64,000 bases of DNA from Moniliella sp. 'wahieum' (Eukaryota). Of this stretch, positions 3,553 to 63,515 are shown in pieces; within the stretch, counting starts at the first letter, position 1, and the number at the start of each line of letters is the position of its first letter. The position numbers and the translations under genes were made by a program. The notes beneath the pieces were generated by a model. That model was given only the letters and a program-made list of their open reading frames with translations, was not told the DNA's origin and made no database searches. The stretch is taken from NCBI GenBank assembly GCA_003971905.1, contig RSEE01000009.1, positions 186,001 to 250,000 of the forward strand, read 5' to 3'.

Positions 3553-4596
3553 GGTGGTGGTGATGGCGAGCAGAGCAGCGCTTGCCGGGAGCGCGGCGAC
3601 GACGACCCAGACAGCTCTGGCAAGGCCAGCTGCCCTAGGCTGCCTCGCGCCAATTTTTCTTTCCTGGCCCCGACGGACACTTGCCTAGTGCGGCCAGGCG
3701 CCAGGCGCCACGCCAGCCAACGAGGCAGGAGGAAAATATAACCCTAGCACCCGGGCACCTTGGGTGCTTCCAAATTTGTGCGGCCTGTGGGCTATGTGGG
3801 CGATTGTCAATTGCAGTGTCGCGTAACCGGCGGAAGCGACGTACCAAGGCTCTAAGTAATGCAAGGCCCAGCCCCGATTTGAAGGGGCAGGGGGGCCCAA
3901 GGGTGTTGGAACACTCCGACGGTTGCGGGGGGCGACTTGATTCTGCCCCCACCAACGGACGAATACCAATGCCCAGTATTCGTCTTTCCCCTTCTTCGAG
4001 ACGACGGCGAGCGGAGCGTCGTATATCGGCGTCTTGTTCAAGCAAGCGAAACCTGTCCAACACAAAATACCTCTTTCGACCACCTCGATACGGAGCAGGA
4101 TACACGAGTATCAAGAGTTACTCCTGCTCAAATTCACGTCAGATGCAAAGGCTAGGCATGAACGTTGAACAGGGAAAGGAAATGTTTCGTCTACTTGGAT
4201 CGCTCATCGCGCATCGGTGTTTTCTGAGCAACTCCCGAACACCCACCCAATTACGTGACCCGTGGCGTCCAATAGTATAGTATGCCGGGGGACCCAAGCC
4301 TCTCTAGATATAGCTCAATCCAATTCCGACTGGATAGGGAGATGAACGTGGTCAACGCCTATAACTATTACTATTAGGCCACACTTGCCTTCTACCTCAC
4401 TACCAAATATGTCGATGCACTTGGCAGTAATAGAAAGCGGGTTTTGGTTCAACTTGTCGTGTCGATCATTGATTCGTCCTCCAACAGGAGGTCGTCATCA
4501 CAACAAAGAGGAAGAAAGTGTCAATGGGGTATGTTCTTTTGGAAGAGAACCCGAGAGGTAAGAGCAAGAAAAAATTGTCCGGTATAGATGCGAAGC

Positions 4597-5188
4597 TCAA
4601 GAGCTAAAGTAAACCTTGCCCGTAAATCCGAGCGTGGACGCATGGGCGCCAGTGGTCTGGACCGCACGGAGCTCACCACTGTCAGCATCATGCTCCATAA
4701 GGTAGTCCCAGACAGGCGCGTCGGTCTGGGTGCTGGTGGTGGGGTTGTAACGAAGGTCGTGGAGGAAGTAGCCGCCGGCATCCACCACCGTGCCGGTGCC
4801 CCAGAACATCTGACTAGGGTACTTGGGACTGGTGTTGTCCGTCACACACGTGTCCATTTCAAAGTGCGTGGCGGGCGGGTTGGACGAGGCGGGTGACACA
4901 CTGGCCCGTACTGTCGAGTACGATCTGGCCAGCCAGTTTAAGAGTGGAACCCGACTGGGTCGTGTTCAGCACGTTGACTTTGAAGGGCCCAGTAGTGCCG
5001 GCTTGGTCGGCCAAAAGGACATTGGTCGAGGCGACATCAATGTTGTACTTCCACGACTCGCCCTCGTAGAGGACGAGAGAGGAGGGGCCGAGCACATCCG
5101 CTGCCCGGGACACCAGGGGGGCAGGCATAGCCACGACGGCGGTGGTGGCGAGGGCAAGAGCGGCGGGGAAGAGCATGGAAAAGTGCAT
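4597..5188 (-). CDS. Small secreted protein of unknown function (one frameshift near 4890)
   Basis: Signal peptide MHFSMLFPAALALATTAVVA. ORFs 4859..5350 and 4597..4899 join at GQCVT/ASSNPPATHFEMDTC. TATATAAA lies upstream at about 5326-5333. Confidence 0.65.
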
Positions 5189-5970
5189 GGTGATTCTTGG
5201 AGGCGTGTGAGATGGGGGCTTGGTTTGAAAAGGAAGGGAAAAGGGTGGTTTGGAAGTGGAAGTGTCCTTAGAAAGAGGTGAGGTGAGGTGAGGGATGTGT
5301 GGTGCTGGGTGGGCAAAAGAGGCCCTTTTATATACCTTCGCTCCCTGCACTGCTGTTTATTGCATTCGTAGTTGTATACACTGAAGAGACGCCGGAACCC
5401 CGAGGGGGGCGCAACGCAATTGGAGTATATTGAGGCGTGTCGTTTCTGTGTCGACGAGCCCACCGTGGCGCGGGCCGCAGCAGCGCCATGCAGTGCTCTC
5501 GGCAGGATGCAGTGCTCCGTGCAGGAAACCGTCCCTTTAGAGGCCATTCCCACGTCTCCTTTGGCTGTGGTGTTTGCCTCTTCTTAGCATTCCTTCATCG
5601 ATCATCCTGCATCTTACCTCGAATACAGCCCCACCCACTGCACTCCGGAGCACCGGCCGCCGCCACCGGACCCGATGCCCGGCAAGCGCGCCACCACATA
5701 ATAAGCTTGTGCCCACATCAAAAGCACTCTTGAGGGGCTTGAAGCTTGAGGATTGAGGGTGGGTGGGTGGGTGGGGGCCTTAGGAAATCAGGCCAGCGAT
5801 TTAACGTGGCGCAGTAATGGAAGGGGTGGGCCTAGGCGCTAATAGATTAATCCTGCGAAGCTACCCTATTGGAACGTTGCAGTGGCAAGACACAACGAGG
5901 AAAGGGGCAATAATTTATTTGGGAAGGAGCGTTTCGAGGAGCCATCGTTGCCCTGTTGGCGTCAGGCGCG

Positions 5971-7306: not shown

Positions 7307-7307
7307 G

Positions 7308-7339
<32 letters not shown>

Positions 7340-7593
7340 GGCGGGTGGAGGTGGTGGGGAGAAGACTTGCCGGTGTCGCTGGTGTAGCAGCATCGGGGTT
7401 TGTGGTCTGTCTTGCTCTTCTTACACGACTGTGCAACAATGTCGCCTATTCCCCGCTGGTCCGAGCCACGTGGTGGGGTGCAATTTCAAAAAAGCACTGC
7501 CGATCCCATATCCAATCCCCAGTCGGCCACCGCCGCTATCATCGATCATTGATCACCGCATCTGATCCAGGACTTGCTCGCGCCTCGTCCGCG

Positions 7594-8873: not shown

Positions 8874-9507
8874 GTCGAGATGGTGGAGAGGAAACACATT
8901 GCTGGTTTATCACGTTCAACGTTCATATGTTCATGGCAACACAAGTAAGATTAATTGACCCCGTGGACTCGAGACACTACACTGGCCTAGTGCTGGCAAC
9001 CCCATTTCGAGCTCGAATGCGCCTTCAAGCTTCAAGCAAGCTTCACCGCCACTGGTCTGGCGAGTTTCATCTACCTTGAGCTTGACAGCCTGGATAACCA
9101 TGCCCGTTGGCGCTATGCCCCTCATCCCAACCGCGGAGAATCGACGCATGGTGCTCAGGACATGGTTGTTGGTGCTATTCTCACTGATATCCCAACTGCT
9201 TCTAAACCCTACCAAGTTGCAAGCCATGAAGCTGTGAGCTTCGGCTTCTGTGTTGATGATCAGACTGCAGCCATGCCCCCATCAATAGGAAGCCGCTGGT
9301 ATTGTTGACTTCACATTCTTTGCGCCAAGCCATCACGACACCTCCACAATCTCGTGGGGGGTAGATGTTGTGGACCCACGTACTCGTCAATCGCTTCCAA
9401 ATGCAGTATCCATGCACATGCCACCATTTCCCGAGTCAGGTCCAAGACTGTACACTTTGCACACTCATTCTGGCGACAGTCATGAAGAAGCAGATTCAAT
9501 TTGACGC

Positions 9508-10108: not shown

Positions 10109-12674
10109 GTTGCCCTCCAGGTTCAGGTGGATGGCTCGGAGCAAGCTCCTGCCGCCGCCCAAGTGGTGTACCCAGCCGGCCTGCCGAGCCCCGCCCCGAT
10201 TTCTAATCCTTTTCCGCCGTTGTTCCGCTACGTGGAGCTTCAATTTGTTGAAATAATGCAACAATGTTTAATGATGCGTGACCGGGTGACGCGTGAGATC
10301 TGAGACCCTTGGGGTGCTGGAATGCCTCCGTCGGCCACATGAGGACGAAGAACTTGAGGAGCATAATAGAGGCGTAGGCGTTCTACAATCAATTTGTGTG
10401 GTATGTTGGGCAAGGTAAGGCAAGAAAGAGAACATACGATAGATGGATGAAAAAGAAGATGGATGCGGGGCTCGATGCATCTATAGCCACAATATTGTGT
10501 GCGCATATGTGGATACACAACTCGGTACATAATACAGGGGCAAAAAATAACGGGAAAGGGAGAGTAGGGGGGAAGCGCACAATGCAATGAACACAAAGTG
10601 CTGACCATTGCTAGCTTAACATCAGTGAACCTTGCAAAGAACCTGGTAGAGAAAGTGAATGTGGTAAGTATTGACAACTAGGACATATAATTGAAGGTAG
10701 AGTATTTGCGTACACATCTTTTATGATCAACACGACCGGATGGCGAGAACCAGAGGGTCCTGATATCCTGGCGATCCCCCTGGTTCCTTAACCTTGGTGG
10801 AGCTTCCAAGCAACCCCCGCAAGATGAACGGTTCGGTTTAGACGTAGCGATCCCCATGTCCCAGCCTTACGCCTGTCAATGATATGGACGCATCAACACC
10901 CGGCGCGGTTTGGAATTTGCAAACGGTCCTTGTGCCCCCCGAGAAGTCCATCGAGGGTGGCACCCACACAAATCATGGTGGTACATCACATAAGAGATAG
11001 GTCATGGTCAAGTCATGGGGCTCTTCCCTCCTTGGTGCGAAGCGGATGTGGAAGAAGGCTGGGGCAGGGACACTTGGGTGCATAACAGCGATTGAGGGTC
11101 AATCCCCTGGGAACTCAATAAAGCACCCGTCCCTTCACTTGTGGCCTTCGGGTGGGCCGTACGGCCGTCTTGCAGAAGCCCAGGCAGAGGTTGAGTGCGA
11201 GGCTCCATGGCGTTGCGATGCGATGCGGTGGAAGAAATAATGTGGTAATTGTACCTCCAGTGATGAAGAATGCATCCGCCCAGACACTTTCGTCTAGCAA
11301 TCTCAATGCGACTTGTTGAGTTTGGAGAGGAGGGATCAAGAACGGAAGGAGGAGAGGGAAAGGGTGCTTAAAGGGTGTCAATGCCTTTATACGTCTCGCG
11401 CATCTTCCATACTACCTCATTTGCCTTAATAGCTGTGATGTAATAGCTGTTGTATTTATCGCGCCGTTACTATCTTCAGCTCCTATATGAAGGAGTACCG
11501 ACCATTGCCTAATCCCAAGGCTGATATATTGTTGCTCTCTACAGTTAATGATGATCTCGATCGCCTCGGTCAATAATCAGGTCATGCCTCACTTGCGTCA
11601 TCTGCCGGAAGTCCATGTCCACACTGTGGTTGACAACACACAGACCAACTGTGGTGGGCCACACATTGTGGGGGAGAAGAGAGCGGATCCTTTTCCCATA
11701 TATGGGAGAAGTGATTGCGTGTCAAGGGCAATTAGTTCTCTTTGCGATCTCTCACATCGTCCCCACTGTCAGCAGCTGAAAACGCATCAGCGTCGTCTCA
11801 GCGCGGCGTGGGTCCGTGTTGAGTCGAAGAAGAGGCATTGCCGATTTTCCCGCAGCGACTTCATTGATATGGGAAACGGCGCGAGGACTGAAGACAGCAT
11901 CGGGAGCGATGCCAAACACTCATGCTGAGCACGCCAGATGGGAGTAGGGTAGATGGTTTGGTGGGGATATATTGGGGGAAGATAAGTTTCGGAGGCAACC
12001 CCTGAGATTTTTCCTGTTTGATGCCGACATGTGACGTCATCATATTCCCTTGGTTCTGGGCGGTCCTTGCTGCCTCAGCGCTATATCACCTCTGCTGATG
12101 TTGGGGTTGGCTGGTGGTAGTGTCCGGCCGGCTTGCATGTCGAAGTCAGTAGCTTGGTAGGTTTCTTCACGCAGTGGCGATGCCGTGGCACTCAGTTCTC
12201 ACTCTCAGTGGCGGAGTCGAGGACCAGGACAGACGCAGGTCGGTCGCGAGATGAGGTCATCAGTTGTTGCCAACTGTCGTCCATGCTGTGGTGAGATCGC
12301 TGAGATCTGAGATCGCGGAGAGGGAGTGGCTGCCACTGCTCTCGTCGAGAGCCTCAGCGCCTCAGCGCCTCAGCGCCTCAGCGCTGAATCAATCTGAAAA
12401 GCTTGAAGTTTAAGCGCTTGAGCTTTTGAGTACTGATGGGCACTTAGTCCCTGTTGAGTCCTGAGCTGTTGAGAGTAGCTGTTGAGACTCAGCTAGTCTC
12501 AACGCGCACGCGCCCTTACCATTGCCTCAGGCAAGCTGGGACAGCTGGCCAAGATTCACCAGCAGGCAGCTCAGCTCAGCCACACTCCTGCCTAATTGAC
12601 TTAATCCCCACAACGACGTCTGCACTTGTCCCCCCGCGCGTCACGTAGGTCCCCTTTTTCTTCAACCACCGCCG

Positions 12675-15206: not shown

Positions 15207-18200
15207 CTATAGCGATTTTGCTACCATTACCCCCGGCGATCGAAGCGACTCGTGCTTGGCGTCGCATCCAACGGGTTCAGTCGTTAGCTGGAACGGCGGT
15301 AACTGGCCTTGGGCGACCACAAGGGCGTGTGCCTTGATTTCTACCTCCTGCCTTGGTCCCACCTCGAGAGTAAACGTCTTGCGCCCGATCCACTGCACCT
15401 CCGACCCTCCGTCCAAAAGGGAGATGCGCACCTTACACGCTCGACGGGGAGACAGATTTTGCACCCGTATAGAGATAGGAGTGAGCCCCTCTTCATTCGA
15501 CAGAGGATGGAAGAGGAGTTGGATCGGATCTTGATCTATGCCCCATCGTGAGCGAGAGAGGTCTTTTATGACTTGTGTCAACATCGAGTCTGTCTCGGCA
15601 AACAAGGCGCGGCGACGGCCTTCCAGACTCGCCAGCACGAGAGGCAACAAACTCTCCCCTGGCGCACCAGGGATGCCGAAGAGGTACGTCCATCCTTGTC
15701 GGTCTTGCAGCCGCCAGTGAATGCAGACGTCCATCCCATACGGGTAGTGGGGGAGAAAGATACCCTCCCGTTCCCGTCGTGGGAGGGAAGGCAGAGCCTG
15801 GGCAAGCGCACGCTTGAACCACCCCCGCTTGACTAGAGGGTAGAGAGAACTCACCTCTCCCGGGAGCGGGGCACCTGTAGGGCTCGCACTACTCGTCACA
15901 TAAGGGATTGCCTTTGGTGGAGCCACGGACCGATCCAGGTGTTTCTCCTTGAACCAATGGGCAAGTTGGTGAGCAGTGTACTGCAGTGTTTCGTTTCCTC
16001 CCCTTGTTCTAGCGGGGAGAGGGTAAGGAAGGTCCGTTGCATTTGCCCAGGCGGGAGGGGGTGTTTTGCCGCTCCTAACGAGGAAAGGGGGAGGCCCTGC
16101 AAGGCCAGTATAGGCTGAGACCAGGCCCTTGTCATGGGGGGCCGTTCGGCATCCGAGCGTTTGGCCTCGGGGGTGGCAGGCGCCAGGCTGCACTACACAC
16201 CGTGAGGGCCTCACCTCTACTGCTTGGCGGGAAAGATTGCTCGTTTCGTACAGGATATTCCAATGCTTCGCGTTCCCACGGGAAGGAGAAGAAGTCACCT
16301 CTGTTCTTAGAAGGGGGCGCACGTCCATGCCCAAACTTACTTTCGCAAAGTGAGGGGACGCGTCGCAAAAGAGGAGGAGTAGATGCAGTGTTTGGATGTG
16401 GGGTAACGCCCGCACACAGACTTGGGCCTCGATGCTCTCCCCTGGTGCAAGGGAGAAGGAATGATTGCAGACGTAGGACGAGTGTGGGCTCAATGGCAAT
16501 GTTTCCTTATCCGTCTTTTGGATAGAGGTGATTAATGCGTAGTCTGGCTGATCCAGGGCGAAGCGCAGACACTCAATGGACGGAGCGCCGGAGGGGTTGC
16601 TCAAGCGGAGAGTAGCCATCACTTCTTCACCATCGTAAAGAATCTCCTCAGGCCATGAGATGACATCAACTTCCACCCTGGAGCGCGGGGGCAAACCCGC
16701 ACATCCCAAGTCCGGTCCGGCGCATACTCTCCTGGACCGAGATCATCAAAGTCTTCTCTTCCCCACACGTTCCTCCTCACCACCTTCTTTCCCTGTTTAA
16801 TGAGCGGCTGGGATATTTTCACGCCCTCGTTCCCATTGAGAGGACGGAGGATGTAGGAAATCCGGGAAGGCGGTAAGTGCCCTCGTTGCGACTCATATAG
16901 GTTTGTTTTACTGTCATCTCTCCGTATGGGGAGAGAGACACCTCTGCCTCTGGGGAAGAGCGTTGCATGCCCTCATTGTCCCACTCCACTTCAATTCGGG
17001 AAAGAATGATAGGACATGCCCAGGGGTTGCAAACAAGGAACTGGATGTCCACATTGCCCCCTGTGGTTGCAGTCGTACCCTCCACTGGCTCGACAGGAAG
17101 ACGTGCTAGCACTTTTTTCTCATCGGAGGGGAGGGAGCAATGAGGCGACTTCACCTCAGCCACCACATTCTTAATTAGCGACATCCACTCCCCTTTTCCT
17201 GGACCGCGGTGCACAGACACGTCATAGCCCGGCGCGGAAAGTTGAAGAGAGCTCTTCACGATCAGATCGATGGGGAGTGTGACCTCACCCCCTCGGGCCA
17301 ACTGGGATATGTATAGTGCAACCTCCTCCTCTGACGCATCGGGGGCAGTGAGAAGTGAGAGAAGGATGGATGCATCCCCCTTTGACATGAGACGGGAAGC
17401 GACATGGGCCATACCTCTAGGCCAACGAGTAAACGAATCGAGTGCATATGCCGCCGTCCATGCCCGCATAGCGGGGGAGGAGGCACCATATCCTTCTGCG
17501 GCAAAGACGAGGTCAAGCGCAGCTTTGCGCCGCCAAGGGCGATTTCCTGCCGGGCTTGAGATAAGGAGACGCATCAGGGCTGCTTGCTCATATAAGACCC
17601 CTGCAATAGTGCCATGCTCACCGAGGCAGGGAACTTGGGCTGCAATCAGCTCCAATTGTGTGGCCGCAGCGCGCACAAATCCCAGTTCCTGCAGGAGGGG
17701 GAACTGTTTCTCTGTGGCCCTCAGAGGAGGAGTAAGGAGGTGGAGTTCCACTGCCCGCCCGGGGGAGGTTTCCCTGGCGATAGTCAAACCCTGAGAGGCC
17801 TCTTCTTCGGTCAGAGGCGTCATGGTCCTGAGAGCAGAAGGGTTTTCCTTCCGCTCCATCTCGTTCAACAAGCGTGCCAACCCCCATTGGCAATGGCTGA
17901 GGCGGCATACACTGCACCTGCCGCCCCCAGTTCAGAGACTAGGAGGTCTTTGTGTGCATGCTCGTAGCACGTCTGGGCAAACCCATAATCATGCAACGTC
18001 CAAGCAAAGTCTCCGAGTCGACGCATCATCACGCCCCCCACTGTGGGCTGAAGCACCCATTCCTGTGGCGCGTTGGGATCGTCGAGTGCTCCAGTGTGCT
18101 TTTCTCGTACACTGCTTGTCCTTGTTACGGATGCTCCGAGTGACTTGGCTGACGACAGGGAGGAGATTGATAGAGATGTGGCCCTGCTCACACCCCAGAG

Positions 18201-19271: not shown

Positions 19272-19677
19272 GAATGGTGGCCACGACGAGCGCCATCGGC
19301 CTGAGCCTCGGCCGGTGGGTCTCGCTGCGGTCAAGTTGAACGTTCGTTTGAACATTGCGTTGGGCGGGTTGCAAGGGAGGGTCACGTGCTAGGTGGTGGG
19401 TCCCGGTGACTAGTGACTAGTGACCTAGTGACCTAGTGACCAGTAATCTCAATGATCGATGATTAATGATTGAGGCGCGATGTTCGATGGCCGATGGCGC
19501 TGAGGGATGGAGATAGGAGCGCGTCGGTGCTTAGCACTGATTAGTAGTGACCTAACCTGCCGCAGCCACAATTGCGATTCGAACGAGTTCTGCAGGTCCC
19601 TGCCCCTGCCTCCCTATCTCCCGCTCCACCATCGCCTCTATCAGCGGCATCCCAGCCAGTCCCGCCGATACGTCGCC

Positions 19678-41780: not shown

Positions 41781-44700
41781 TGGCTGCTGAGGTTATCGCT
41801 CACAGGGATGAGAATCCTCTAGAACCCGCTTCTGAATAATAGGGGAGTAGGAGAGATCTTGGATGCTGCCAGTGGTGGGTGAATGAAGTAGGTGCCTTGG
41901 GATAAGAAAAAACATAGCAAAATCCAGATGGATCAGTCGGTTGCTGGATTTCATGGAAGAGAATCGATGACATCGAGATGCCACCGATTGGGTGACGTCA
42001 CAAAGTCACTCTTGATCAACCTGATCGATCGACCTCATATTTCCTTATCGGCCCTATTCCACCTCATTTGCATATGACAAAAGCTGACCGACCACATTTG
42101 TGCCGATCTCCAAGTTCAGGTGTGGCAGAAGATTTAGACCTGAACCACCACACACCCCGCGACGGCATATATTATTGCTCTACCTTTTTCCAGGGGCTCA
42201 TCTCCACCCAATTCCTGGTGTTCCTCCCGTCTCACACTTTACGTTAGACGGAGGAGGGAAGCTGAGGTTTAGCATGCACGTGGAGAGTACAACACATCGC
42301 GCACACACCCTCAAAAATTTTGCTTTTTGTGTGAACCACACACACATGATTACTGATGGGGCCTCTCTCACAACAATCCGGTTGGAAAGGAGATCAACGT
42401 CCTCAACACACAGAGACAAAAAAGGCCAACTAACTGATACTGCTCGAGCGTCATAACGTCCAACAACAGGGTGGGATGTGGGTTTTGGTAGATCGCGCGC
42501 ATGAACAAACTATAGCGTTGAAGCTATATAGAGGCTATATATACGCTGTCGAATGAAAAGGCTTGTGATGTTGAACGTTTGGGCACGTGTGTCACGTGCT
42601 AAGGATATAGTAGGAGACATGGATGGCCGATCTCTAGCATAGCTCCAGCGCTTCAGCATCAATAATCGACCATTGACATGGTGGGTATCTCTGTGACATG
42701 TGACAGGCTACGGTCACAAATGATTAATGAGCGCTGAGCAAGAGCGAACTCTGAGCTAGTGAGATCTGAGATGTGGACAGGTGACACCGGTGACACCGGT
42801 TACATGTTGTGACATGTGACCATGATGCGAGTAGCCTCTGTGCGCGCGCAGCTATGTGCGCGGGACTATAGTAGAGTGACTGTTGTTACAAGTTAAATTG
42901 TTGTTGATTCCAACACTTTTTCCCTCCCTACTTGTGGGATTCGGGTCGCTCTCTCCAAGTCTGTTGGAGCGAGGCTTTTACTCTCGAGTACAATTGCCCG
43001 GCGAAAAGGCATAGGCTATACTCACTTCCCTTGTGAATCTTCCTCCAACTAGAATATTTCTTGGCCCATATTATGCCCTCATCTCGATCCTTTTCCTATG
43101 CCCTTTTACTGTCGTTCCAATAGCTCTCATCAGTGAACAGGAACTCAAGAGTCACTATGGTTATAACACTGTTTAAGTCATTAGTAATAGCGACACTATT
43201 AGCCCCTGAGTGAGAAGTCTTCTGAGTCCATGAGGGGAATGTAATGATGTTGTGGCTGGGTGACTAATTGCGCACCCCATATATATCTAACGGGTGACGG
43301 CAGCGCACATGCATGCCACAAAAAGAGAAGTGTGTTGTGTCGAGTTGTTAGACACTGTAAACAGGCTCAGGTGAGGCTACCCACACTCGACAGCGATAAA
43401 GTGATGCGCCGGGCACGCATATAGCCCGAGGTGAAGTGGACGTGCGGCTTGAAGCTTAAGTACGCAAAGACGGGACGTGCTTTTGGCCTGGAACATGTAA
43501 GCTGTAACATGTTCTAGTACCGGTAACGCGGTAAAAAGCGGTGACGCGGTAACGTTGGACTTGGAGCTTGGAGGATGAAGTTCTGACGTCATTTTTCCGA
43601 GCGTATCGAAAAGACAGGGGCTACAAGCTTCAAGCTCACTCTTGCTGCCCTCTGCTGACTTTAAACAACGGTTTGGGTTAAGAATTTTAGTCTGGGACCA
43701 AGTGGGTACCTGCAAATGCTGGTGTCTCATATGCCAGCCACGTACTATGTGGTAGAAGGGTTGCTGTCAACATGTCAACAGAATGGCTTGTAGCGCCCTC
43801 AGTACGTACTCAAGAGTAGTGCGGGTCGAGGACCGTCGAGGAGCTAGGAGCTATCGAGACTCAATATTCAATCGCATCAATGGATGCCATGTCATTCGAT
43901 GACCGCAGACGGTCATCTCTCCGACACAACGCTCTGGAAGAGTAGTTGCCTCTACAATGCATTCGATAGGGGGGTGGATGAAAGCCATTCAGCGATACTC
44001 AGCAGTATTACCAGCGTGAAACTATAATGCTCAGTACACTGAACTCAGTACTCAGTGTTGGACGTTTTGGACGTTGGACTCTCATCGATCATCGATCTCA
44101 GATCTCATTGTCGCGCTGAACACGGTCGATCGGCTTGTGTGTGCCCCGCACCGTTCGAGCCGACCTTAAATACCTATTAGCCGGCCTAAAGCGAGAGGCG
44201 ATGAGAAAAGGGCGGAGAGAGGTCAGACACATACCATGCGAATCAATTCACATTTACATGGGAGCAACGGCTCGCATGTCGATGGATCTCAAGCGCCACG
44301 CCCAGTGCAAACCCCTGCGAGCGTGTTGTGTACTGGTTATTGGCTGGAGCTTCCTATACACGTCGTTTTTGAGCACCACTGGTGCGCGCAGGTTCTAACC
44401 TGTTCTACCCCCACCACAGCCAATGCAGGCCCTATGATATGGCAGCAAAAACGTGGAGGCACGGCCTTGGTCTCTGTCACATGAGGACACGGTGTGCACT
44501 GTGTACTGCGTCCGAGGACTGATGTTCTGTACGACCGGCGCATCGGACCAGTGTGTGTGTTGAACCAACGCTCGCTCAGGCAGTGGATCCCCACCATGCA
44601 TCACACATCACACATCACATGTCACAGGTCGCACATACTGCTGGCGACGCAAGGCTATGCTCCCAGGGGTGATACCGGTGGTGCATGGGTGGTGCTGATG

Positions 44701-48424: not shown

Positions 48425-48790
48425 TAACTCTGATGCGGTGCGCCTCATGCCTACTCCCCTCGTGCTATTCGTGCCTCTTGACTTCATCCTCTTCCTATTC
48501 CCTTCGCCTGCGGCGAGGCGCTTGCTCTCTTACCATTATGGTTACCCACTTTGCATTCATCTTTTGTCATCCGATACGATTTCTCAGATCGCCCTCTTAC
48601 CGTTGCTGCTGGCTTGCTTGCGTGCGTTTGTGCCTGTAGAAAGGGAATGATATACGTGAGCTGTGTCTTCCTATTGAGCATTGAATAATTGAGCTGATAT
48701 GTTGAAGCAGCTCAATTTCACTCCTTTCACGCCAGCAAGTGTAGGTGCGCAGCTACGAACTTCTACGTACACACACATGCGGAATGATTA

Positions 48791-51700
48791 ATGAAGCAGG
48801 CGGAACACCCGACGCGTCTGGTGTACTTAAAGGACGCGTCGGCCAGGATGCGGGGCCACCCCAACGCCAATCCACCAACACCACCATCACCCATGGCGAC
48901 CAGTGAATGCGCAGCGGCTGCTCCATCCCCCGAAGCAGAGCGGCGGCTGGGGCTACGTAGCAAACTTGCGATCCACGTTCACTTTAATTCGTCCTGTGCC
49001 GACGTGGCCCTATACTACCGCGCATCGAACTCGGCGCGGGCGCCATTAGTCAGATCCACCGTCTCCTCACCCTGTCTGCTGCCACCCGCCTCACAAAACT
49101 GAACACGATCATCGAGCCAGTCACGTATGAGGGTCGTGTTCACGTTAGCAGCAATGGTGCACAAGGCTGCTCACGTGCTGGGCCTTCGCTTGACAGACCA
49201 GTCTTGGGGCGAACGACTATGGGTGGAGCCCACCAATACTGCCCTCCTCTTACATGTGCCGCCCCTGGCGCCTTATGTTCAAAGAAGGAAATTTCTCGTA
49301 ATACTCCATGGTGCGGCGCCCTACATTCGCACGCCACCTCGAGACGTTTATGCTGTCCACATCCCTCGTCCCTACTCACTCAACAACCGAATTCGCGTTT
49401 CGGCCTCGGACGCGGTCCTGGATGCACACCAGGTGCATGGACGGCCAGCGATGGGCTTGGAGTCGGTATGGCTCGAAGCAGCGCGCAACATACGTCGTAT
49501 TCATGACGGAGAAGGGGATGATAATACGACCTACCGTGGTAGTGAGTATGGGAAGACGAGTTCGACGACGGTATTTCCTTTGTCGGCGGTTCCAAGCCGG
49601 TCATGATCCCATCACTATCCGCTGGGGCCCCACGCCTGAAGGATCACTGGGATCACCTCCTCCTATGGACGTGGACAAGGTTGAAGCTCATTTGAACTTG
49701 GCCCCAGAGGGTGATGTGGCCTATCCCACTTACTTTGCTTTTGAATGCACCATCCGGTTGATGGACTTGCATTTTCCCTGGGTCACAGAGGGCGGGGTAG
49801 TGAGGTACATGTTTCCTCCTCTTTTTGACAAGATGAATGCTGACAGACTGGCTTGACGAATGGTGAGGATAGTGTGGACTTTCTATTTGCTCATGAGGCC
49901 GAGCGGATTGTCCGCTTTTTAGAGAATAGAGTGACCGTCACGCCCCCACACCCACACGACCAGACGCATACACGAAGTGCAGCAGAAAACACCCTTCCTC
50001 TACCTAGGCACATACCCTCTCTCCCCTCCCTCGCCTCGAGCTCGAGTGTGGACGAAAGTGATCTGATCCATGTCCACCCCCCCCCTAATCTGGATGCAAT
50101 GGACGGATCCACAATCTCTCTAGCGGCATGGGACCCTCCTCCAGGTGAAGGAGACGACGGGTGTGATTTTCGACTCGACTCACATCGGGTCTCTACTCCC
50201 CATACTAGTGCCAATGTGAACGTGCGAGGTATTTTGAGCCTTGCTCCACATCACACCTCCTCTCACGCTGGGAAAGAGAGATATGTGACTTTCACAGCCC
50301 CTACGGTACAAGTTCGTCAAGCACAATCGTCCTCTGTCTTGACATTGCAGCTCGCCCCCCCACTTTTGGCCGACCCAGACCAGTCAAATGAAGTTCTTCG
50401 ATTTTTGTTTGGAACGGGACATCTGACTCTACCCTTACTCCTAGAGAATGGAGACCGCCAAAGGAGTTACCTGCTTTACCTGACCCCCGAACGTGATGGT
50501 TTCAGTGCCAATGGATGACGGAACGGAGGCCGATGATAGATCCCACGTCTCCCTCACACCCACTACCAAGCCTGAGCAGGAACTCCACATCCAACCTAAT
50601 CTAGAACCTCCATCTTGTCTATCGAAAACTTGGCTCGATACAGGGAAGGTTGAGTTGCTCCAAGGTTTATCGGGGGCTTTCTTGGGCCGTCTTACCCTCC
50701 CCTCTAGTAGGAGCAAGGTAACGCTTTCATTCCCCCACAGACAGGGCAGGTTCGCACCCTCACCCAACACCAGCCCCTTTCTTGTTCTCCTTCCGGGGAA
50801 CTAGTCTATCCCATCGCAGGAGTGGAGTGGACGTTTCCGCCTAGTCCCACCATGCCGCTCCCTATCATTTCCTCCGGTGTGAAGAAACTCGAAGTCTTGT
50901 TTCGAAGGGAATTCACTCTCCAACCCAAGGAAGTGGTCTCTCTCCCCCTCCCCGGTAGGGTGGAAATCCACACTCTTCCTCCCTCGATTGCTCTCGTATT
51001 CATTCCTGCCCCCAAGCAAAAGGGGAGGTGGAAGGATGCATTTGTACTTGTGGGAATTGTGGCTCTCCTGGCGGTCATTAAACTCATCCTGCTCGATTCG
51101 GGCCTCGCAAAGCTGCAGCACCGTGTCCACCTGCTCACACTCGCTGCTAACCTCGATACGAGTGATGGTTCTTGAACGCCCGAAACTGTTGCCACCCCGC
51201 CGCTTACCCAGTTTCCCCACCACAAAAAGCGCCGGTAGTGGATCTGCCTTCGTCATTGCTGACCGGACCAGAGGAAGACCTCACCTACTACTATCGCACC
51301 GCTCCCACTCATCTCGCCTTGGATTCCACAGAAGCCAGAGAGGCTGTGGTTGTGTAAGACCGGAGGAACCCAAGGGATTGGGTGAAGAACCTCTGGAAAT
51401 GTAGAGCAATGCAATCGCGATGGTGGTGGTTAAGGTCTAAGCCTTGTGCCACACCTAGAGACAGGGGTTCAGACAAGCCTGAGTATACACGTGGAGGCTT
51501 CGGAGGACAAATCAGGGGTGAAGGGTGATGAGGCGCCTTGGCCTAAGTACGGGACCACGGGTCCCAACACCCCCCCGGGCCAAGGGAACGAAAGAAGCCC
51601 GTTGGCCATCAACAAAAGAAAAGTAGAAAGGGGATCAGCGCGAAGAAAGAGAAGCCAAATCGAAATTGTTACGCGCAGAAATGATCTTGGGAAGAGAAAG

Positions 51701-54700: not shown

Positions 54701-57336
54701 GATATGTCAAGGACGTCGAGGTGGAGGAGAGAGAAAGGGCGAATGGTTCGGATTGGGCGTCCAGTCGTGGCGTGGGGTGGGGCAGTGGCTCTGCTTAATG
54801 CGCATGGTGCACAGTGCCACGAGGACCGGACTAAAGCGATGTCGCCACTGTTGACCCGTTCGAATGCTGGGTCATCCGACGTGAGGGATGAAAGTTGATC
54901 TAGAGGTGCATGATTCCATCGGATGTGGGCGTTTTTCACCTTGACCAGGGTTGCATCAAGGTTGAGTAGCGAAGTGGCGCTGTTGGCTGTGGCTGTCGTA
55001 TTGGGCGCCAGAGTAAGGGAATAGCTTGAGTCGGCGGCGAGACGAAAAGGTTCGCCGTGTCGTCCGAGATAGAGACCATGGCCACCTGGAGGGATCCAGC
55101 TGCCAATGCCTGCGATAGATAGATGGTAAGCGCTGAGCAGGTTGGTCGGGAAGGTGGGGCAGTACAAGCTGCCGGGTAGGTGGATGCGGATAGGGGCTCC
55201 GTTCTGGGTTTGAATGTACATAGAGATGGTGCCAATGCCTTCAGTGTATGCGATCTGTCCGTTTGCCACTGCTATGGGCTCGCGGTGTGGACGAAGATTG
55301 ATAAACGCACTTCGTTCATTGAATACGGATGGTCTCGCACCTGAATCGTGTTGCGCAGGGAGGTTGGCTGGCTTGGGTGGTGTAGTGGCTGCCATAGGGG
55401 TTACTGCATGGGCAGATGAGGTGGTCTGGGCTGTCGTAGCCGGCCGGCTAAAGTGGCCGCCACGTTGGCCACCACGGTGACTTCCTCTGTACCCGCTGCC
55501 ACCTCGGCCTCGTCCGCGGCCTGTCACCGTACTGCTTGTTTGGCTGTGCGACGTGGCTTCCGAAGGGGCCGTACTGGAGGGAGCTGGGCTTGAACTGGAG
55601 GTACTGCCGTAGTTGGAGCCTTTGAGTTCGCTCACTGCTCGGCGCAATTCGGCGTAGCTGCTGTTACGATGGAGGTGCAACCACCCCTGATCAGTAACGC
55701 CTTTCCGTAGCATCTGTGCTAGACCAATCTCGTCCAGCTTGGACTTGGACGTCATCTCGTACTGGGTTACCGCCACAGTGAACTCATTCAGGTATTGGCG
55801 GCCCGACTTGGTGCCCATTTTGAGAGTGAGAACCTTTATGAGGATATCACAGATCTCAGTGTCTGAAACGGTGCCGTACAAATCACGCAGAGCATGATAG
55901 TATGCAGACCCTAGAGCCGGCGTGCCATCGCCGGTGATCTGCTGGACGACGTCGGAGTCTATCCACGGGAGTAGAATGTTGGCCAAGTGAGCGTCCAGTT
56001 CTGCGTTATACCCGTCCAGGGCCTTGCCCTGTTCCAGATGCTCACGCGCTCCAGGGATAATCTGGATACGAGGGAGGAAGATCCGGGTCCATAACCAAAA
56101 CGAGCTGTTGTTGTGGAAACGCTCGTGGTACGGCACGTTGCTGCGAGTGGCACTACGGAGGAGCTTGTCGGGAGTCAAAGCCCACGGGTTGTCGTCGACG
56201 GCCGGAGTTGACGATAAGGCACCTTCGTTCTTGCTAGCATTGGGTGGATTCTCACATGATAACATGACAATGGCTTCTGTGGTCGTCTTTTCGCTGTACC
56301 CAAGCTTGATACCAGTGTCCTGTAGCTGTTTGAGGGTGATGTGTTCGGGAAACAATTTGAACATGTTGCGAATGCGGTCGGCGAGGGTGGCGACGTCGTT
56401 CGCGGTGTTGTCGGGGCCCACGGGGGTGGGTTGAGGTGTAGGGGTAGATTCACGCGATGGTGTCAGCGGCGGGGAGGCGTGGTCAACTCCGACGGGAGTG
56501 GTGCTCTCTTCTGCTCCGGCAGTTGGTGAAGTAGGGGTTGAGGAGTTGAACCAAGACTCCTGAGTCTGAGAGCTCATGATGCTTGCCATTAGCTTACGCA
56601 GTTCGAGCAAGCGCTTGTGGATAGGGCCGGCAGCGGAGGACCGAAGAGTGTAAGAGTGGAAGGCTCAGGGCTGAGCGTCAAGAGGATTGTAACTCTGTAA
56701 GACCGGAGGAACCCAAGGGATTGGGTGAAGAACCTCTGGAAATGTAGAGCAATGCAATCGCGATGGTGGTGGTTAAGGTCTAAGCCTTGTGCCACACCTA
56801 GAGACAGGGGTTCAGACAAGCCTGAGTATACACGTGGAGGCTTCGGAGGACAAATCAGGGGTGAAGGGTGATGAGGCGCCTTGGCCTAAGTACGGGACCA
56901 CGGGTCCCAACAGGTTGCGGTAAAGCAGGATGCGGGTTGGTTGGATGAGTTTATCTCACGCCCAAATGGGGAGGTCGAGTTGGTTTCGCGCCCGCCAACG
57001 ACGAATATCGGTTTTCGTCGCTCCATGTTGCGGATTATATATTTGCCCCCTTGCGCTTGGTCCTGGCTAGCCTTGTGTTCCTGCTGGACCGTCTTGTGCT
57101 CTACTAGTTCGGTCTTCGCCCAGCGCAAGTGTCTTACCGTGATTGTAACGCAATACCCACGTGTGTGTGGCGTCCGACGTCCTACTCTGCGCCCTACAGT
57201 GGAGGGAGACGCAGCCGGTCGGTGTAGCAAATGTCCGAATGTTCAAGCTTCAAGGCTTCAAGCTTCAAGCTTCACTGGTGACGTCACCGGCCGGATCCAA
57301 ATGTGGGTCTGCTGTATGCAATTTTGCAACGACTGA
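48791..57336 (+). CDS. Hypothetical (membrane?) protein interrupted by the Copia element
   Basis: Chain of + strand ORFs over 48791-51357. Removing the element and one TSD joins ...EAREAVV to AVKQDAGWLDEFISRPNGEVELV in frame with ORF 56941..57336. Confidence 0.45.
51353..56912 (-). mobile_element. Full-length Ty1/Copia LTR retrotransposon, 5560 bp
   Basis: Identical 217-bp LTRs at 51353-51569 and 56696-56912, TSD GGTTG (51348-52 and 56913-17), domain order gag-PR-INT-RT-RH, G-rich PPT at about 51570-51577. Confidence 0.97.
51635..56610 (-). CDS. Copia Gag-Pol polyprotein (one frameshift in a G run near 54685)
   Basis: PR DSGA; integrase HIRWNH..CAPC, LHLDV, IVDDFTRYTW, RSDNAPE, NGVAERAIR; RT KYRARYVVGG, LKKSLYGLHQSG, HTDD; RNase H HTDASFA, VDNTAA. 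Confidence 0.95.
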
Positions 57337-61108: not shown

Positions 61109-62020
61109 ATGCGTTTCACCTCACTTTCTTTGTGTCTTCTTGCCATCGCGTTGGCCGCGAGTACGTTCAAACGCCTTTTCTTGATCAACCCGAACGAGAA
61201 TCAAGAAGCTGATATTGGTTCAAACAACAGAGGCCCAGCTGGATTATGAAGATCCGCTTCTGGCAGCCGCCCAAGGGGCGAGCTCGGCCGTGGCTGCCGC
61301 CACCACCGTTCTTCCTCGCCAACACAATTGGTTCCACGGTGTAGGCCAGCCGCTCCACCGTCGACATGGGAGCAAGATTGGGGTACAAGTGCCATCCCCT
61401 CCTCTTGCGCGTGATGGATTCCAAGCCGGAGGAAGCGTCAGTGCCAGCTTCCCTTCCATCTCGCAATTAACGTCGCAGATTCTGCAGCAGCTGCCCAAGT
61501 CACCCTCTCTTGATGATATCTCTTCTGCACTGCAGAAGACACTGAGTAACTTTGAGGGAATTGCTCCTCAGCCGGGCGAGATCATATTTTCGGTTCAACC
61601 CGTTGTGAGCCAGGCAGGTCAGAACGCTTCCCTGCCCAGGTTACATCCATTGTTCAGCAGGCCATCACTTCCCTTCCGTCAGATGTTGCTTCCAAGTTCC
61701 CCCTTCCGTCACTGAGTCTGGCCAAGCGGGACTTGAAGGCGTCCTTCTCTTTCTCCGCGAGCGGGGATTTCTCTCTGCCCACCCAGGTGCTTTCCATGGC
61801 AGAAGGCATCTCTTCGTTGGGAACCGAAGCTGCTGCTGCTCCTACCCAGGCCGCTTCGTCCGTTGCGGATGTCCTGTCTTCTCAGCTGGGCAAGCTTCCT
61901 GCCCCTTCAGTTGTGGCCTCCGTCGAGGAGAGATCATGCCCAAGATCTCGGTTTCGGCGCTTTCCCCCAATCAGATTCTCTCGGCCGCTTCAGCCGTCGT
62001 ACCTCAAGCTTGAGGCTTGA
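61109..62020 (+). CDS. Putative secreted Ser/Ala/Pro-rich protein
   Basis: Signal peptide MRFTSLSLCLLAIALAA, intron gtacgt..gctgat..aacag, TATAAAT at about 60994. 3' end uncertain. Confidence 0.5.
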
Positions 62021-63515
62021 AGTTTGATCATCTTTTCATCTATTTTCTCCCCTCTGTTTTCTTTCCATTTTTCGTCTACGAGAAGTACCACTCTGTGAGA
62101 GGGTAGTGCTGTGGTTTCCCTGCACAGTTCTCAAGTTGGTTGTTGATGTTCGCCTAACTGTCGGCTCAAAGGGTTCTGGTCGCAGGCTGATGTACACCCT
62201 CTATTACTCTTACTCGCTCCATCTCCTGCCTCTCTCTTCTGTCTCCTTTCCGTCAGACAGGGTTGCGGCACCCTCTTTTGCCTTAACGCCTTGTTTTGAA
62301 GGCTACTTCGCAGCTGACCTTGTACGATCCTCTCCGTCGAGTGATCTCAAAACATTGCACTCCACCACTCTCCTACTGTTGTTTCCCACGTCTTTTCATT
62401 GATCCAATTTAAAAGCATATCAGGAGTACGCATACCGGCCGTAGGCCCGGGTGGTCCTCTAGTACTCTCATATCTCCACACGCGAGCTCCACGTCCACCT
62501 ACTAGTATGATAGGTTTGTGGTTTGTGTGGTGTTAATTCAATGTGGCGAGAGAAAGAAGCTGGTGCCACGGGATCTGTGCGCATTTGAGATGTGGCTGGT
62601 GGCATGTGCCGACCCTCAGCAACCACATGGAGCAGGGACTTCGTTGGACGTTGACGATAAAACCAGCTTGGGACGCAATTAAGTTGACATTCGTTGGGCG
62701 AGTTGTGGATGCTTTGGGGGTCAGCTATATCGACAGTTAGATGTTACAACCCGCTTCATGCTAGCGTCAGGCCTCGGGCTCAGGCTGTGGCCTCGGGCTG
62801 AGGTCGGCTGCGCACTCGGATGCAGCTGACGCTTCAAAAGCTTCAAGCTTCAAGAGCTTCAAGGCTCTTGAAGCTTCAAGTGTCAGATGTGACATGTGAC
62901 ATGCCCCATGTGACATGCCATTTGTCACTAGGTCGCAGGCGAGCTCAGCCTCATCGGCCTCGCGCCTGAGCCTCAGGCGGTATAGGGTACCCTGTTGGAT
63001 CGGCCGGATGCAGCACACTGCCCCCAGGCGAGGTGCTTCTTGCGGGCGCCTGCCTGCGTGCTTTACGCCGGGCCTCCCACTTCAAGCTCCAAGCTTCATC
63101 GATCATCTCACAGCCCCCCTGGGGGTGGCTCTGTACACTCCGCGCACACTCAGTACTCACGGCAGCACTGCGCTGAGTTGAGCGCGCTGAGCGCAACATG
63201 CGACACTCGGCCTTAGCGCTTAGCGCCCTTGACTTCGCAGCAGCCTTGCCGGAGCGCAGTCACTAGTCAGCTAGTCAGACGCCAAGAAGGCTTGGCGCTA
63301 CCCCGCGATGCTGATGAGCACACGTGACGCGTGCCGAGGGCTTTTCCACAGCACTGAGCGCGGGACACATTATGGCCGCTGCAGAGACCAACCGGGGTCC
63401 GTCATCGATCCGTCATCCGTCATCGAACCATAAACACTTTAACCCCTTCTTCGCCAGACCTTGCCCGCCCAGTCACTGTCGCCTCGTTTCCCCCCCGCCA
63501 ACTAGGGCAGAGAAG

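Follow-up and report, generated by a model that had tools for sequence, protein, structure and literature searches.

Palindrome-cored TGA/TCA units in non-coding DNA of Moniliella sp. 'wahieum' and their possible origin as transposon excision footprints

Hairpins on the flanks of excised elements have been documented for hAT, Transib, MULE and RAG (excerpt of PMC5499845). Transposon footprints carrying P nucleotides have been observed in a fungal host, and the palindromes of hAT footprints are described in the same excerpt as centring on the complement of the element-adjacent base (PMC5873905). In basidiomycetes, DNA transposons with 7-bp target-site duplications (TSDs) are known, including a hAT lineage, according to an extract of PMC12730594.

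The window analysed here, namely the whole 64-kb stretch of contig RSEE01000009.1, contains 50 same-orientation units in which two TSA triplets (S = G/C) enclose a palindromic tetramer, against about 1.9 in shuffled sequence (1.82±1.21; 50 dinucleotide-preserving shuffles), and the strands are used evenly (27 TGA, 23 TCA). By eye, an earlier note on this DNA had counted 14 cores and upwards of 40 units; our recount raised these to 15 and 50, and its 20 example units were all found where it had placed them, save one that moves from 33684 to 33685. The comparison with non-palindromic cores that it had proposed revealed no excess among the latter (43 observed, 34.1±6.1 in shuffles). When all 64 trinucleotides were compared, only TGA (27/51 palindromic) and TCA (23/42) were exceptional, the next being TGG with 5/36. 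Enrichment was limited to a spacing of k=4: k=0 (38 vs 38.2) and palindromic k=2 (8 vs 7.9) were not enriched, palindromic k=6 gave 2 vs 0.5, and the mixed TGA..TCA orientations gave merely 4 vs 0.9 each. The excess is therefore real, very strong, and specific to TGA/TCA in the same orientation with palindromic cores at spacing 4.

As the note had claimed, it is the symmetry that is conserved and not the core sequence, since 15 of the 16 palindromic tetramers are used (only TATA is absent) and the core is copied from the flank. One half of the core, the first or the last, repeats the dinucleotide on the outer side of the opposite TSA in 43 of the 50 units; 17 units fit the right flank only, 16 the left only, 10 both and 7 neither, compared with 0.20, 0.13, 0.00 and 1.67, respectively, in shuffles. 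The two mirror forms are thus equally frequent, as a symmetric process predicts. This flank rule indicates that an empty site abTSAxy was lengthened by exactly 7 bp, to abTSA-xyy'x'-TSAxy or to abTSA-b'a'ab-TSAxy. In 16 single units the stretch of period-7 identity is exactly 12 bp long, as against 14 bp for a simple tandem duplication, and the minimal structure is 5+2+5, in agreement with the earlier parse of a 5-bp duplication with a 2-nt inverted filler. An unbiased scan for W5 + reverse complement of 2 nt + W5 found 79 matches vs 9.4±2.6 in shuffles, and in 53 of the 79 W was TSAnn, so that TSA was recovered without prior specification. Nine decayed units with a one-mismatch core also retain the flank rule (1.4 expected), while three chains require one extra substitution. 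No target preference beyond TSA was detected at the units. The units and related repeats are given below, where footprint stands for a putative excision footprint and p for the number of nucleotides between hairpin tip and opening in the model described afterwards.

4159..4170, +, single footprint TGAAC-GT-TGAAC, core from right flank
5595..5606, -, single footprint TCA-TCGA-TCA-TC
5737..5749, +, single footprint CT-TGA-AGCT-TGA, core from left flank
7538..7549, -, unit TCA-TCGA-TCA, flank rule half met
8912..8925, -, footprint ACGT-TCA-ACGT-TCA, 14-bp span
9023..9037, -, footprint CT-TCA-AGCT-TCA-AG, fits both flanks
10286..10305, +, chain TGA-CGCG-TGA-GATC-TGA-GA; core 2 fits right flank, core 1 one mismatch from left
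12300..12314, +, footprint TGA-GATC-TGA-GATC
12351..12384, -, period-8 array (TCAGCGCC)x4, 7+1 derivative
12427..12436, +, unit TGA-GTAC-TGA without flank rule
17347..17360, +, plain 7-bp duplication AGTGAGA x2, centre TGA, p=0 class
19406..19441, +, array TGA-CTAG x2, then period-8 TGA-CCTAG x3
19452..19471, +, chain TGA-TCGA-TGA-TTAA-TGA-TT
25814..25825, -, single footprint CG-TCA-CGCG-TCA
26702..26720, +, array CT-TGA-AGCT-TGA-AGCT-TGA
26731..26746, +, 7+1 class TCTGAGA-T-TCTGAGA
26768..26781, +, minor class AA-TGA-TTAA-TCA; putative hairpin opening 4-5 nt; second-site central base flipped
27119..27134, -, 7+1 class GCTCAGC-C-GCTCAGC
31284..31309, -, chain TCA-ACGT-TCA-ACGT-TCA-GCGC-TCA-GC
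32062..32071, +, unit TGA-CATG-TGA without flank rule
33626..33638, +, single footprint GG-TGA-CCGG-TGA
33652..33667, +, footprint TGA-TGCA-TGA-TGCATG
33684..33695, +, unit TGA-ATAT-TGA, flank rule half met at both sides
33793..33816, +, array AGCT-TGA x3
33927..33936, +, unit TGA-AATT-TGA without flank rule
34454..34467, +, minor class TCA-GCGC-TGA-GC, putative 4-5 nt opening
34906..34919, -, footprint GCGC-TCA-GCGC-TCA
35199..35212, +, minor class GA-TGA-TCGA-TCA, putative 4-5 nt opening
36905..36916, -, single footprint TCA-TGCA-TCA-TG
39307..39329, +, footprint CC-TGA-GGCC-TGA-GG, then 7+1 copy TGA-GGGCC-TGA
39337..39350, -, plain 7-bp duplication GCTCAGG x2, p=0 class
39354..39365, -, single footprint AC-TCA-GTAC-TCA
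42692..42705, +, footprint TG-TGA-CATG-TGA-CA
42719..42739, +, chain AA-TGA-TTAA-TGA-GCGC-TGA-GC; putative ancestral AATGAGC site, both flanks mirrored, two visits
42760..42772, +, single footprint TGA-GATC-TGA-GAT
42780..42800, +, period-9 repeat GGTGACA-CC-GGTGACA (7+2+7; alternatively simple 9-bp tandem repeat)
42808..42820, +, single footprint TG-TGA-CATG-TGA-C
43765..43780, -, 7+1 class TGTCAAC-A-TGTCAAC
43861..43872, -, single footprint TCA-ATAT-TCA-AT
44043..44056, -, footprint AC-TCA-GTAC-TCA-GT
44082..44107, -, adjoining footprint pair TCA-TCGA-TCA-TCGATC and GATC-TCA-GATC-TCA
44599..44626, -, plain 7-bp array (CATCACA)x3, then footprint TCA-CATG-TCA-CA
48783..48794, +, single footprint AA-TGA-TTAA-TGA
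57242..57274, -, TCA-AGCT unit array including one 7+1 copy (TCA-AGGCT)
62838..62880, -, TCA-AGCT array with 9-bp variant (CTTCAAG-AG-CTTCAAG) and inverted copy TGA-AGCT-TCA (long-opening class)
62887..62903, +, footprint ATG-TGA-CATG-TGA-CATG
63096..63107, -, single footprint TCA-TCGA-TCA-TC
63148..63159, -, single footprint AC-TCA-GTAC-TCA
63258..63278, -, footprint AG-TCA-CTAG-TCA, then 7+1 copy TCA-GCTAG-TCA
63408..63424, -, plain 7-bp repeat (CGTCATC), 2.4 copies, p=0 class

The reading towards which we lean is that the units are excision footprints of a cut-and-paste DNA transposon, or of a small group of such transposons, absent from this window. Such an element would insert at NNTSANN, where only the central T-S-A is specified, a small odd palindrome of the kind expected for a symmetric transposase dimer, and would generate the 7-bp duplication abTSAxy...abTSAxy. 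When the transposase excises the element, each flank would be sealed covalently into an even-ended hairpin, as with RAG, Transib and MULEs, and a host nuclease would nick each hairpin 2-3 nt 3' of its tip (P nucleotides); this would transfer 2 nt between the strands and leave a self-complementary 3' overhang, xyy'x' on the left and b'a'ab on the right. Untrimmed ligation followed by replication or repair would yield either mirror form, always with the same gain of exactly 7 bp and with the core copied from the flank that supplied the overhang. Because each footprint holds two TSA targets, re-visits could build chains (different cores) or arrays (same core), which replication slippage might then expand into 7-, 8- and 9-bp mini-arrays. 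If this is true, the units in non-coding DNA are a readable record of the element's earlier visits.

An explicit model, in which the TSD is 7 bp long, each of the two hairpins is opened at a distance of p nt from its tip and the ends are ligated directly, fits 53 14-mers in the window vs 1.1 in 40 shuffles. The p=2/3 class predominates (27 exclusive, 6 also fitting p=1, 10 ambiguous), and no product exclusive to a 1-nt opening occurs among the fitting 14-mers of the window. The p=4/5 class, with the second-site centre base flipped and the flank rule kept, is seen at 26768, 35199, 34454 and 62867, and the p=0 class, a plain 7-bp duplication centred on TSA, comprises five 14-mers at four loci; each minor class is expected at most 0.2 times in shuffles. 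Three 7+2+7 loci are equally readable as simple 9-bp tandem repeats. The product spectrum, which counts against the excision reading, is markedly more uniform than that reported for Ac/Ds hairpin repair in fungi, where 28 footprint types from 128 events are given in the excerpt of PMC5873905.

With RAG/V(D)J, Transib and the MULE Muta1, which form even flank hairpins, the units share an even-centred palindrome copied from the flank end, a typical addition of 2 nt and opening positions from 0 to a few nt; they differ in being T-S-A-centred and unusually uniform and in a duplication of 7 bp rather than the 5 bp of Transib or the 8-10 bp of MULEs, and neither an element nor an RSS-like end nor a transposase was seen with them. 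As in hAT elements (Ac/Ds, Hermes and the rust-fungus hAT7 with a 7-bp TSD), cut-and-paste via flank hairpins would place palindromic insertions at the rejoined duplication. However, the units are centred between two bases and leave the neighbouring bases unaltered, unlike the odd hAT geometry described in the excerpt of PMC5873905, and hAT-type products derived by hand failed to reproduce the units. Between the hAT-type and RAG-type P nucleotides that the earlier note had offered, the even-centred palindromes thus fit RAG/Transib/MULE-type hairpins and not canonical hAT geometry. PIF/Harbinger elements, which make a 3-bp TWA duplication, likewise target a three-base odd palindrome T-N-A, but here the centre base is S and not W. 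A 3-bp duplication is disfavoured because the same hairpin chemistry would yield TGATCA and TCATGA, neither of which is enriched (18 vs 17.7 and 12 vs 18.7); the suggested TSA target is thus retained as the centre of the target, while a duplication of 7 bp (NNTSANN) suits the units better than one of 3 bp (TSA) or 5 bp. Tc1/mariner footprints (TA, element-end bases, TA) also consist of duplication, short palindrome and duplication, but their palindrome comes from the element ends and is constant within a family, whereas that of the units varies freely and copies the host flank. We know of no described superfamily that combines a 7-bp TSD, a T-S-A target and even flank hairpins.

A variant of the footprint idea assumes a 5-bp duplication (TSANN) as in Transib, with P nucleotides on one flank only and asymmetric target recognition. 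The minimal 5+2+5 structure is literally that, and Transib and RAG make both 5-bp duplications and even hairpins. This version, however, requires processing on one side only and an asymmetric target that has TSA at one of its ends; its 1-nt variant (82 vs 32.5) and 3-nt variant (8 vs 2.1) are not TSA-enriched, with only 3 matches headed by TCA in the former and only 2 by TGA in the latter, and the variants observed, namely the flipped centre base and the plain TSA-centred 7-bp duplication, match the symmetric 7-bp model instead. We therefore regard it as quite unlikely. A transposon-free origin, in which a replication or repair error at T-S-A (a short template switch or fold-back, with the central G/C as a recurrent lesion or nick site, for example) inserts 3 inverted and 4 re-copied bases, is unlikely as well. 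In formal terms, a template switch with two jumps would produce TSAxy + y'x'T + SAxy, and the highly uniform product resembles one stereotyped reaction more than end joining. The search for a transposon that the earlier note had called for counts against the excision reading and leaves room for this one: neither the 64-kb window nor the 121 metagenome loci yielded an element that has inverted ends and is bordered by a TSA-containing duplication of 3, 5 or 7 bp, and the 150 longest ORFs gave no transposase domain. On the other hand, a loopless fold-back with return on 1-nt homology is, by reasoning, sterically and energetically implausible, T-S-A as universal switch point has no known cause, the minor classes follow from variable hairpin opening and not from a fixed switch, and neither palindromes of 4-12 bp (z<1.5 for every length) nor small quasi-palindromes show a general excess.

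Selection for functional cis-elements, be they binding sites in which TGA half-sites recur every 7 bp or three-frame stop cassettes, is highly improbable, even though the units cluster in promoter-like and downstream intergenic DNA and the 7-bp TGA period puts stops in different frames. The core lacks sequence preference and is copied from the adjacent 2 nt, a pattern for which a protein-binding code would not account. The units are also spread evenly over the two strands, decayed copies are present, and the unit-bearing stretches are the least conserved parts of a near-allelic pair of fungal contigs (L002/L067); the dispersed binding code once suggested for these units is thus not supported. 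Equally remote is the birth of heptamer microsatellites by slippage, with palindromes as by-product, or an assembly or base-calling artefact. Arrays of 2-4 copies with 8/9-bp derivatives exist, and array copy number differs between related contigs. Slippage nevertheless accounts neither for a minimal span of 12 bp and a palindromic core nor for the flank rule and the TSA specificity, which upholds the earlier judgement that this is not an ordinary microsatellite, and the presence of the grammar in independent metagenome assemblies and its exclusion from coding DNA argue against an artefact.

Returning to excision footprints of a transposon, the anatomy and the coding-DNA exclusion bear out in outline the hairpin/P-nucleotide excision proposed earlier, while its proof, a transposon copy or an empty-site allele, was not found; the pair L002/L067 differs solely by copy number and complex changes. 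What the sequences show directly is the anatomy of the units with its statistics, their clustering, their absence from coding DNA and the occurrence of the grammar in other fungal contigs. The mechanism is therefore inferred, from the sense of the change (a gain of bases) and the hairpin chemistry to the transposon itself and its family.

Not one of the 50 units falls inside Pfam-supported ORFs, which make up 27.9% of the window and contain 470 of its 1974 TSA sites, consistent with the placement outside exons noted before. The units are clustered (17 gaps <150 bp vs 6.2±2.1 expected), and the chain at 42719 can be derived exactly from two visits to a single AATGAGC site. Metagenome loci totalling 407 kb contain, apart from the seed, 29 flank-rule units vs 2.25±1.7, and 19 of these units have a core that differs from the seed's. 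The grammar-positive contigs that could be placed are fungal, one of them Agaricales-like, and one locus (L004) carries a two-visit chain pattern like that at 42719.

The earlier note had described, in the non-coding DNA of the window, units in which two TSA triplets (TGA or TCA) in the same orientation enclose a 4-bp palindromic core. All 20 of its quoted examples were found in the sequence, with the one placed at 33684 corrected to 33685. Counting bore out the excess that it had estimated, with 50 units (27 TGA and 23 TCA) against 1.82 ± 1.21 in 50 dinucleotide-preserving shuffles, and this excess was indeed confined to palindromic cores, as TSA-N4-TSA with a non-palindromic core occurred 43 times versus 34.1 ± 6.1 in shuffles. 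Fifteen of the 16 palindromic tetramers occurred as cores. Among all 64 trinucleotides, only TGA and TCA showed the palindromic-core excess: palindromic cores made up 27 of 51 TGA pairs and 23 of 42 TCA pairs, followed by TGG with 5 of 36. Comparison of other spacings with shuffles limited the effect to a spacing of 4 (k = 0, 38 versus 38.2; k = 2 palindromic, 8 versus 7.9; k = 5 with an odd-palindromic core, 9 versus 2.0; k = 6 palindromic, 2 versus 0.5), and mixed TGA/TCA orientations at k = 4 numbered 4 versus 0.9 each. A general enrichment of palindromes was ruled out, since palindromes of 4–12 bp were not above shuffles, and period 7 was the short period with the strongest identity enrichment (170 versus 17.2).

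The exclusion of the units from coding DNA also held. None of the 50 lay in Pfam-supported ORFs, which cover 27.9% of the window and contain 470 of its 1974 TSA sites, and 2 of the 50 were inside ORFs of at least 200 codons (49% of the window). The units were clustered, with 17 neighbour gaps below 150 bp versus 6.2 ± 2.1 under random placement outside long ORFs; the densest patches were the divergent intergenic regions at 19.4 kb and 42.7–44.6 kb, and also 33.6–33.9 kb. Pfam analysis of the 150 longest ORFs of the window (64 kb, 56% G+C) identified ordinary fungal genes split by introns (B56, Trs85, UvdE, MFS, RhoGEF, Sel1-repeat and others) and one Copia-type retrotransposon, and no DNA-transposase domain. 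A SURF4/Erv29 gene had its top matches, at 72% identity, in Ustilaginomycotina (Violaceomyces, Kalmanozyma and Pseudozyma), its own protein being absent from the database.

The 50 units correspond to 45 period-7 runs, in which the identity typically spans exactly 12 bp, beyond the 10-bp unit and short of the 14 bp of a tandem duplication. In TGA orientation, the extensions (left, right) were (0,2) and (2,0) in seven cases each, (1,1) in two and (0,0) in three, the others being longer. This anatomy follows a flank rule, by which half of the core copies the 2 nt beyond one TSA triplet: the first half of the core matches the 2 nt that follow the second TSA, or the second half matches the 2 nt that precede the first TSA. 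The rule was obeyed by 43 of the 50 units (17 right only, 16 left only, 10 both and 7 neither; shuffles 0.20, 0.13, 0.00 and 1.67, respectively), so that TSA and 2 flanking nt are duplicated at a 7-bp period in these 43. With the flank written as xy, the core is xy followed by its reverse complement, which makes the palindrome even-centred. A search blind to TSA, for any 5-mer W repeated after 2 nt that are the reverse complement of either its last or its first two bases (W5+P2+W5), gave 79 matches versus 9.4 ± 2.6, and W was TSAnn in 53 of them; the other 26 include the same arrays read out of phase, and their remaining centres were scattered (TGG three times, CAG twice, TTA once). No base preference outside T-S-A was observed in the reconstructed empty sites. 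Nine units (1.4 expected) had one core mismatch yet still obeyed the flank rule, beside 43 perfect ones, which roughly suggests a mean unit age of a few percent divergence and, therefore, a process that is recent or still running.

These features can be generated by a simple footprint model. A transposon with a 7-bp target-site duplication centred on T-S-A would occupy a presumed empty site abTSAxy, and its departure would leave both flanks as perfect even hairpins. Each hairpin would be nicked 2 nt 3' of its tip, with 2 nt passing between strands. The top strand of the left end would then end in xyy'x' (primes denote complements), and that of the right end would start with TSA, ab being lost, while the bottom strand would mirror the top. 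Top-strand ligation would give abTSA-xyy'x'-TSAxy and bottom-strand ligation abTSA-b'a'ab-TSAxy; neither trimming nor filling would be needed, and both products would be 7 bp longer than the empty site with the outer flanks kept. The two mirror products were equally common, as the model expects. As T pairs with A, a 3-nt opening yields a sequence identical to that of a 2-nt opening.

An explicit generator (site, opening at p = 0 to 7 nt from the hairpin tip, either strand) was scanned across the window and recovered 53 model-fitting 14-mers versus 1.1 in 40 shuffles. Of these, 27 fitted only p = 2/3, 6 fitted p = 1–3, and 10 belonged to ambiguous arrays. Five 14-mers (versus 0.07) at four loci (17347, 39337, 44599/44606 and 63411) fitted only p = 0, a plain abTSAxy duplication. 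Three or four loci (26768, 35199, 34454, 62867) fitted p = 4/5, for which the model predicts a second site with its centre base flipped and the flank rule kept, as matched by TGA-TTAA-TCA, TGA-TCGA-TCA and TCA-GCGC-TGA-GC. One or two cases fitted p = 6/7, and the scan of the window gave no product specific to p = 1. Beside the 7 units that are exceptions to the flank rule, the chains at 10287, 19453 and 31284 each require one extra substitution. A 5+2+5 parse is possible, the minor product classes fitting a symmetric 7-bp duplication better; a one-sided 5-bp version predicted 1-nt and 3-nt variants, which showed no TSA enrichment.

Two further arrangements were observed. TCA-[palindrome][palindrome]-TCA occurs at 12075, 39448 and 43799 (3 versus 0.0), with a doubled core in two of the three (CTAGCTAG, GTACGTAC); its reading as a product in which both overhangs are kept found no support, since the flank rule fails in all three, and the arrangement is not accounted for by the model. 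In addition, a single TSA stands between two copies of one 4-bp palindrome at 31675, 43631, 59520, 62912 and 63189 (for example, GCGC-TGA-GCGC and CTAG-TGA-CTAG), five cases against our rough expectation of about 0.5. They could be the remains of decayed arrays, or products of a further class; the outer triplets at 31675, GGA and CGA, both differ from TGA by one base.

The chained units can be read in the same terms. A single AATGAGC site and two events, one of each kind, suffice to derive exactly the chain AA-TGA-TTAA-TGA-GCGC-TGA-GC at 42719, and the same double pattern was found in two metagenome contig loci (L004 and L017). After a first event, three of the four possible next events would repeat its core, which, together with slippage, would account for arrays such as (TGACTAG)n, (TGAAGCT)n and (TCAACGT)n. 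Forms with a period of 8, such as (TCAGCGCC)4, (TGACCTAG)3, TCTGAGA-T-TCTGAGA and GCTCAGC-C-GCTCAGC, are 7+1 derivatives. The 7+2+7 loci at 31356, 42780 and 62848 are compatible with the model and were left out of its support because they are also simple 9-bp tandem repeats. As in micro- or minisatellites, the arrays of the window have 2–4 copies, and copy number differs between the metagenome loci L002 and L067; slippage describes how the arrays grew later, not how the units arose.

When metagenome contigs were scanned with one 17-base array of the window, at least 121 loci were obtained. Among the matches listed, after exclusion of 60 bp around the seeds (407 kb left), palindromic units numbered 41 versus 15.5 ± 3.1 and flank-rule units 29 versus 2.25 ± 1.7, of which 19 (versus 2.25) had a core unlike that of the seed. 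The signal, among these matches, comes from a subset of contigs (e.g., L001, L004, L009, L017, L036, L047, L062 and L067). L009 carries a peroxygenase gene whose top named matches are in Agaricales (62–67% to Marasmius, Psilocybe and Gymnopilus), and L067 encodes a fungal AreA-type GATA domain; L033 is a bacterial contig with a single unit, probably due to chance. Four AT-rich loci (L010, L023, L046 and L096; 33–39% G+C) share a 100–270-bp repeat around the seed array at 87–92% identity, a repeat that probably represents an unrelated family from a different organism.

L002 (1–1325) and L067 (450–1850, minus strand) form a near-allelic fungal pair; BLAST gave 88% identity over 1277 bp, and column identity in the alignment averaged 89%. 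The unit-bearing stretches are the parts with most differences: a 61-nt patch differs in unit content, a TCAAGCT array has 4 versus 3 TCA, and one unit is disrupted by a substitution. This argues against conservation of the units by selection, and the dispersed binding code that the earlier note had offered as an alternative is not supported. In this sole near-allelic pair, array copy-number and complex differences were found and no clean empty site. The pair also shows many indels of 4–25 bp besides the unit differences; one 7-bp insertion (TCAAAAC), which lies away from TSA sites, could not be matched to the model whichever site and opening were taken (best, 2 mismatches).

The units were compared with known transposon systems. 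PIF/Harbinger elements make 3-bp duplications (TWA) and have in common with the units the idea of a T-N-A target. However, the centre base of the units is G/C, TTA/TAA-centred units are rare (for TTA, 2 of 7 TSA-like pairs and one W5+P2+W5 case), and the products derived by hand for a 3-bp duplication with hairpins, TGATCA and TCATGA, do not reproduce the units and are not enriched (18 versus 17.7 and 12 versus 18.7). Footprints of Tc1/mariner elements have constant, element-derived cores and a TA duplication, whereas the units have 15 different cores, copied from their flanks; element-end-derived (Tc1-like) cores, derived by hand, did not reproduce them. PMC5499845 documents flank hairpins in hAT, Transib, MULE and RAG systems, the one of Muta1 being even (43+43 nt). 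The units resemble RAG/Transib-type flank hairpins with P nucleotides in that their palindromes are even-centred and copied from the flank end. In Candida, according to PMC5873905, the P nucleotides of Ac/Ds footprints have as their centre the complement of the base adjoining the element, and the footprints are heterogeneous (28 types in 128 events), unlike the even-centred palindromes and narrow spectrum of the units. By hand comparison with that text, a hAT origin agrees with period 7 but not with even-centred palindromes and unchanged adjacent bases, and the units were not derivable by hand from odd hAT hairpins with 7- or 8-bp duplications. The hAT7 families of rust fungi have 7-bp duplications (PMC12730594), and the text and supplement searched state no target preference for them. 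No description of the TSA-palindrome grammar was found in the literature searched, largely at abstract level and with most subscription journals and Repbase outside the search.

Based on the flank rule and the model fit, the hairpin and excision process proposed in the earlier note stands in outline and can be stated more precisely, with a 7-bp duplication of NNTSANN, hairpins that are even and an opening of 2–3 nt. The transposon that it envisaged did not appear: neither the window nor the loci among the matches listed (about 0.5 Mb) yielded an element with inverted ends and a duplication of TSA (3 bp), TSANN/NNTSA (5 bp) or NNTSANN (7 bp), the only candidates being array artefacts. Since neither an element nor a clean empty site was found, the transposon itself is inferred, and so are its hairpin chemistry and the direction of change. 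The chief competing explanation is an insertion process that is site-specific and independent of any transposon; of the element-free schemes derived by hand, staggered cuts with fill-in and Top2-type 4-nt fill-in did not reproduce the units. On balance, we lean towards the units being transposon excision footprints. Should this prove wrong, the units would still call for a site-specific process that inserts 7 bp, and that would be even stranger.

More tentatively, basidiomycetes, in both smut-like and mushroom-forming lineages, could harbour a cut-and-paste system that is highly mobile and as yet undescribed, either a family of transposons or a domesticated transposase. It would target NNTSANN (7 bp) and form even flank hairpins like those of RAG, and its repair would be so stereotyped that each visit leaves a readable 7-bp scar. 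Such scars would make up about 2% of the non-coding DNA of the window, seed heptamer mini-arrays, and form a genome-wide fossil record of visits and of the hairpin-opening rule of the host. If this is true, a simple pattern search would count, and roughly date, every past DNA-transposon visit in a fungal genome, which heterogeneous footprints normally prevent, and the scars would disclose the host rule (a nick 2–3 nt from the tip) without an experiment. Elements that combine a T-S-A target with a 7-bp duplication and even hairpins would then form an unrecognised transposon type; within transposase evolution it would belong on the RAG/Transib/MULE side, and it would come from a phylum with few studies of such elements. 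The scars would also show how transposons give rise to new short tandem repeats and to turnover of promoter sequence.

The window also contains two LTR-type elements:
51353–56912, minus strand, complete Copia-type LTR retrotransposon (domains RVT_2, rve and Pol_BBD) with two 217-nt LTRs, 100% identical, TG...CA ends and a 5-bp target duplication GGTTG
32089–33485, TRIM-like small LTR-type element of 1,397 bp with two 240-nt terminal repeats, 100% identical (TGTTGAC...CCAACA), and a 5-bp duplication TCCGA

The Copia-type element looks very young, and TSA-palindrome units are absent from it. The smaller element has no long ORF with a Pfam match and carries a 20-bp tandem repeat at 32447–32526. 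Finally, two 30-nt stretches upstream of two different genes (25743–25772 and 48781–48810) are 80% identical and have GCAGGCGGAACACCC in common, with the unit AATGATTAATGA in one copy and GATGGATGTTGA in the other; the shared stretch may be a promoter motif.
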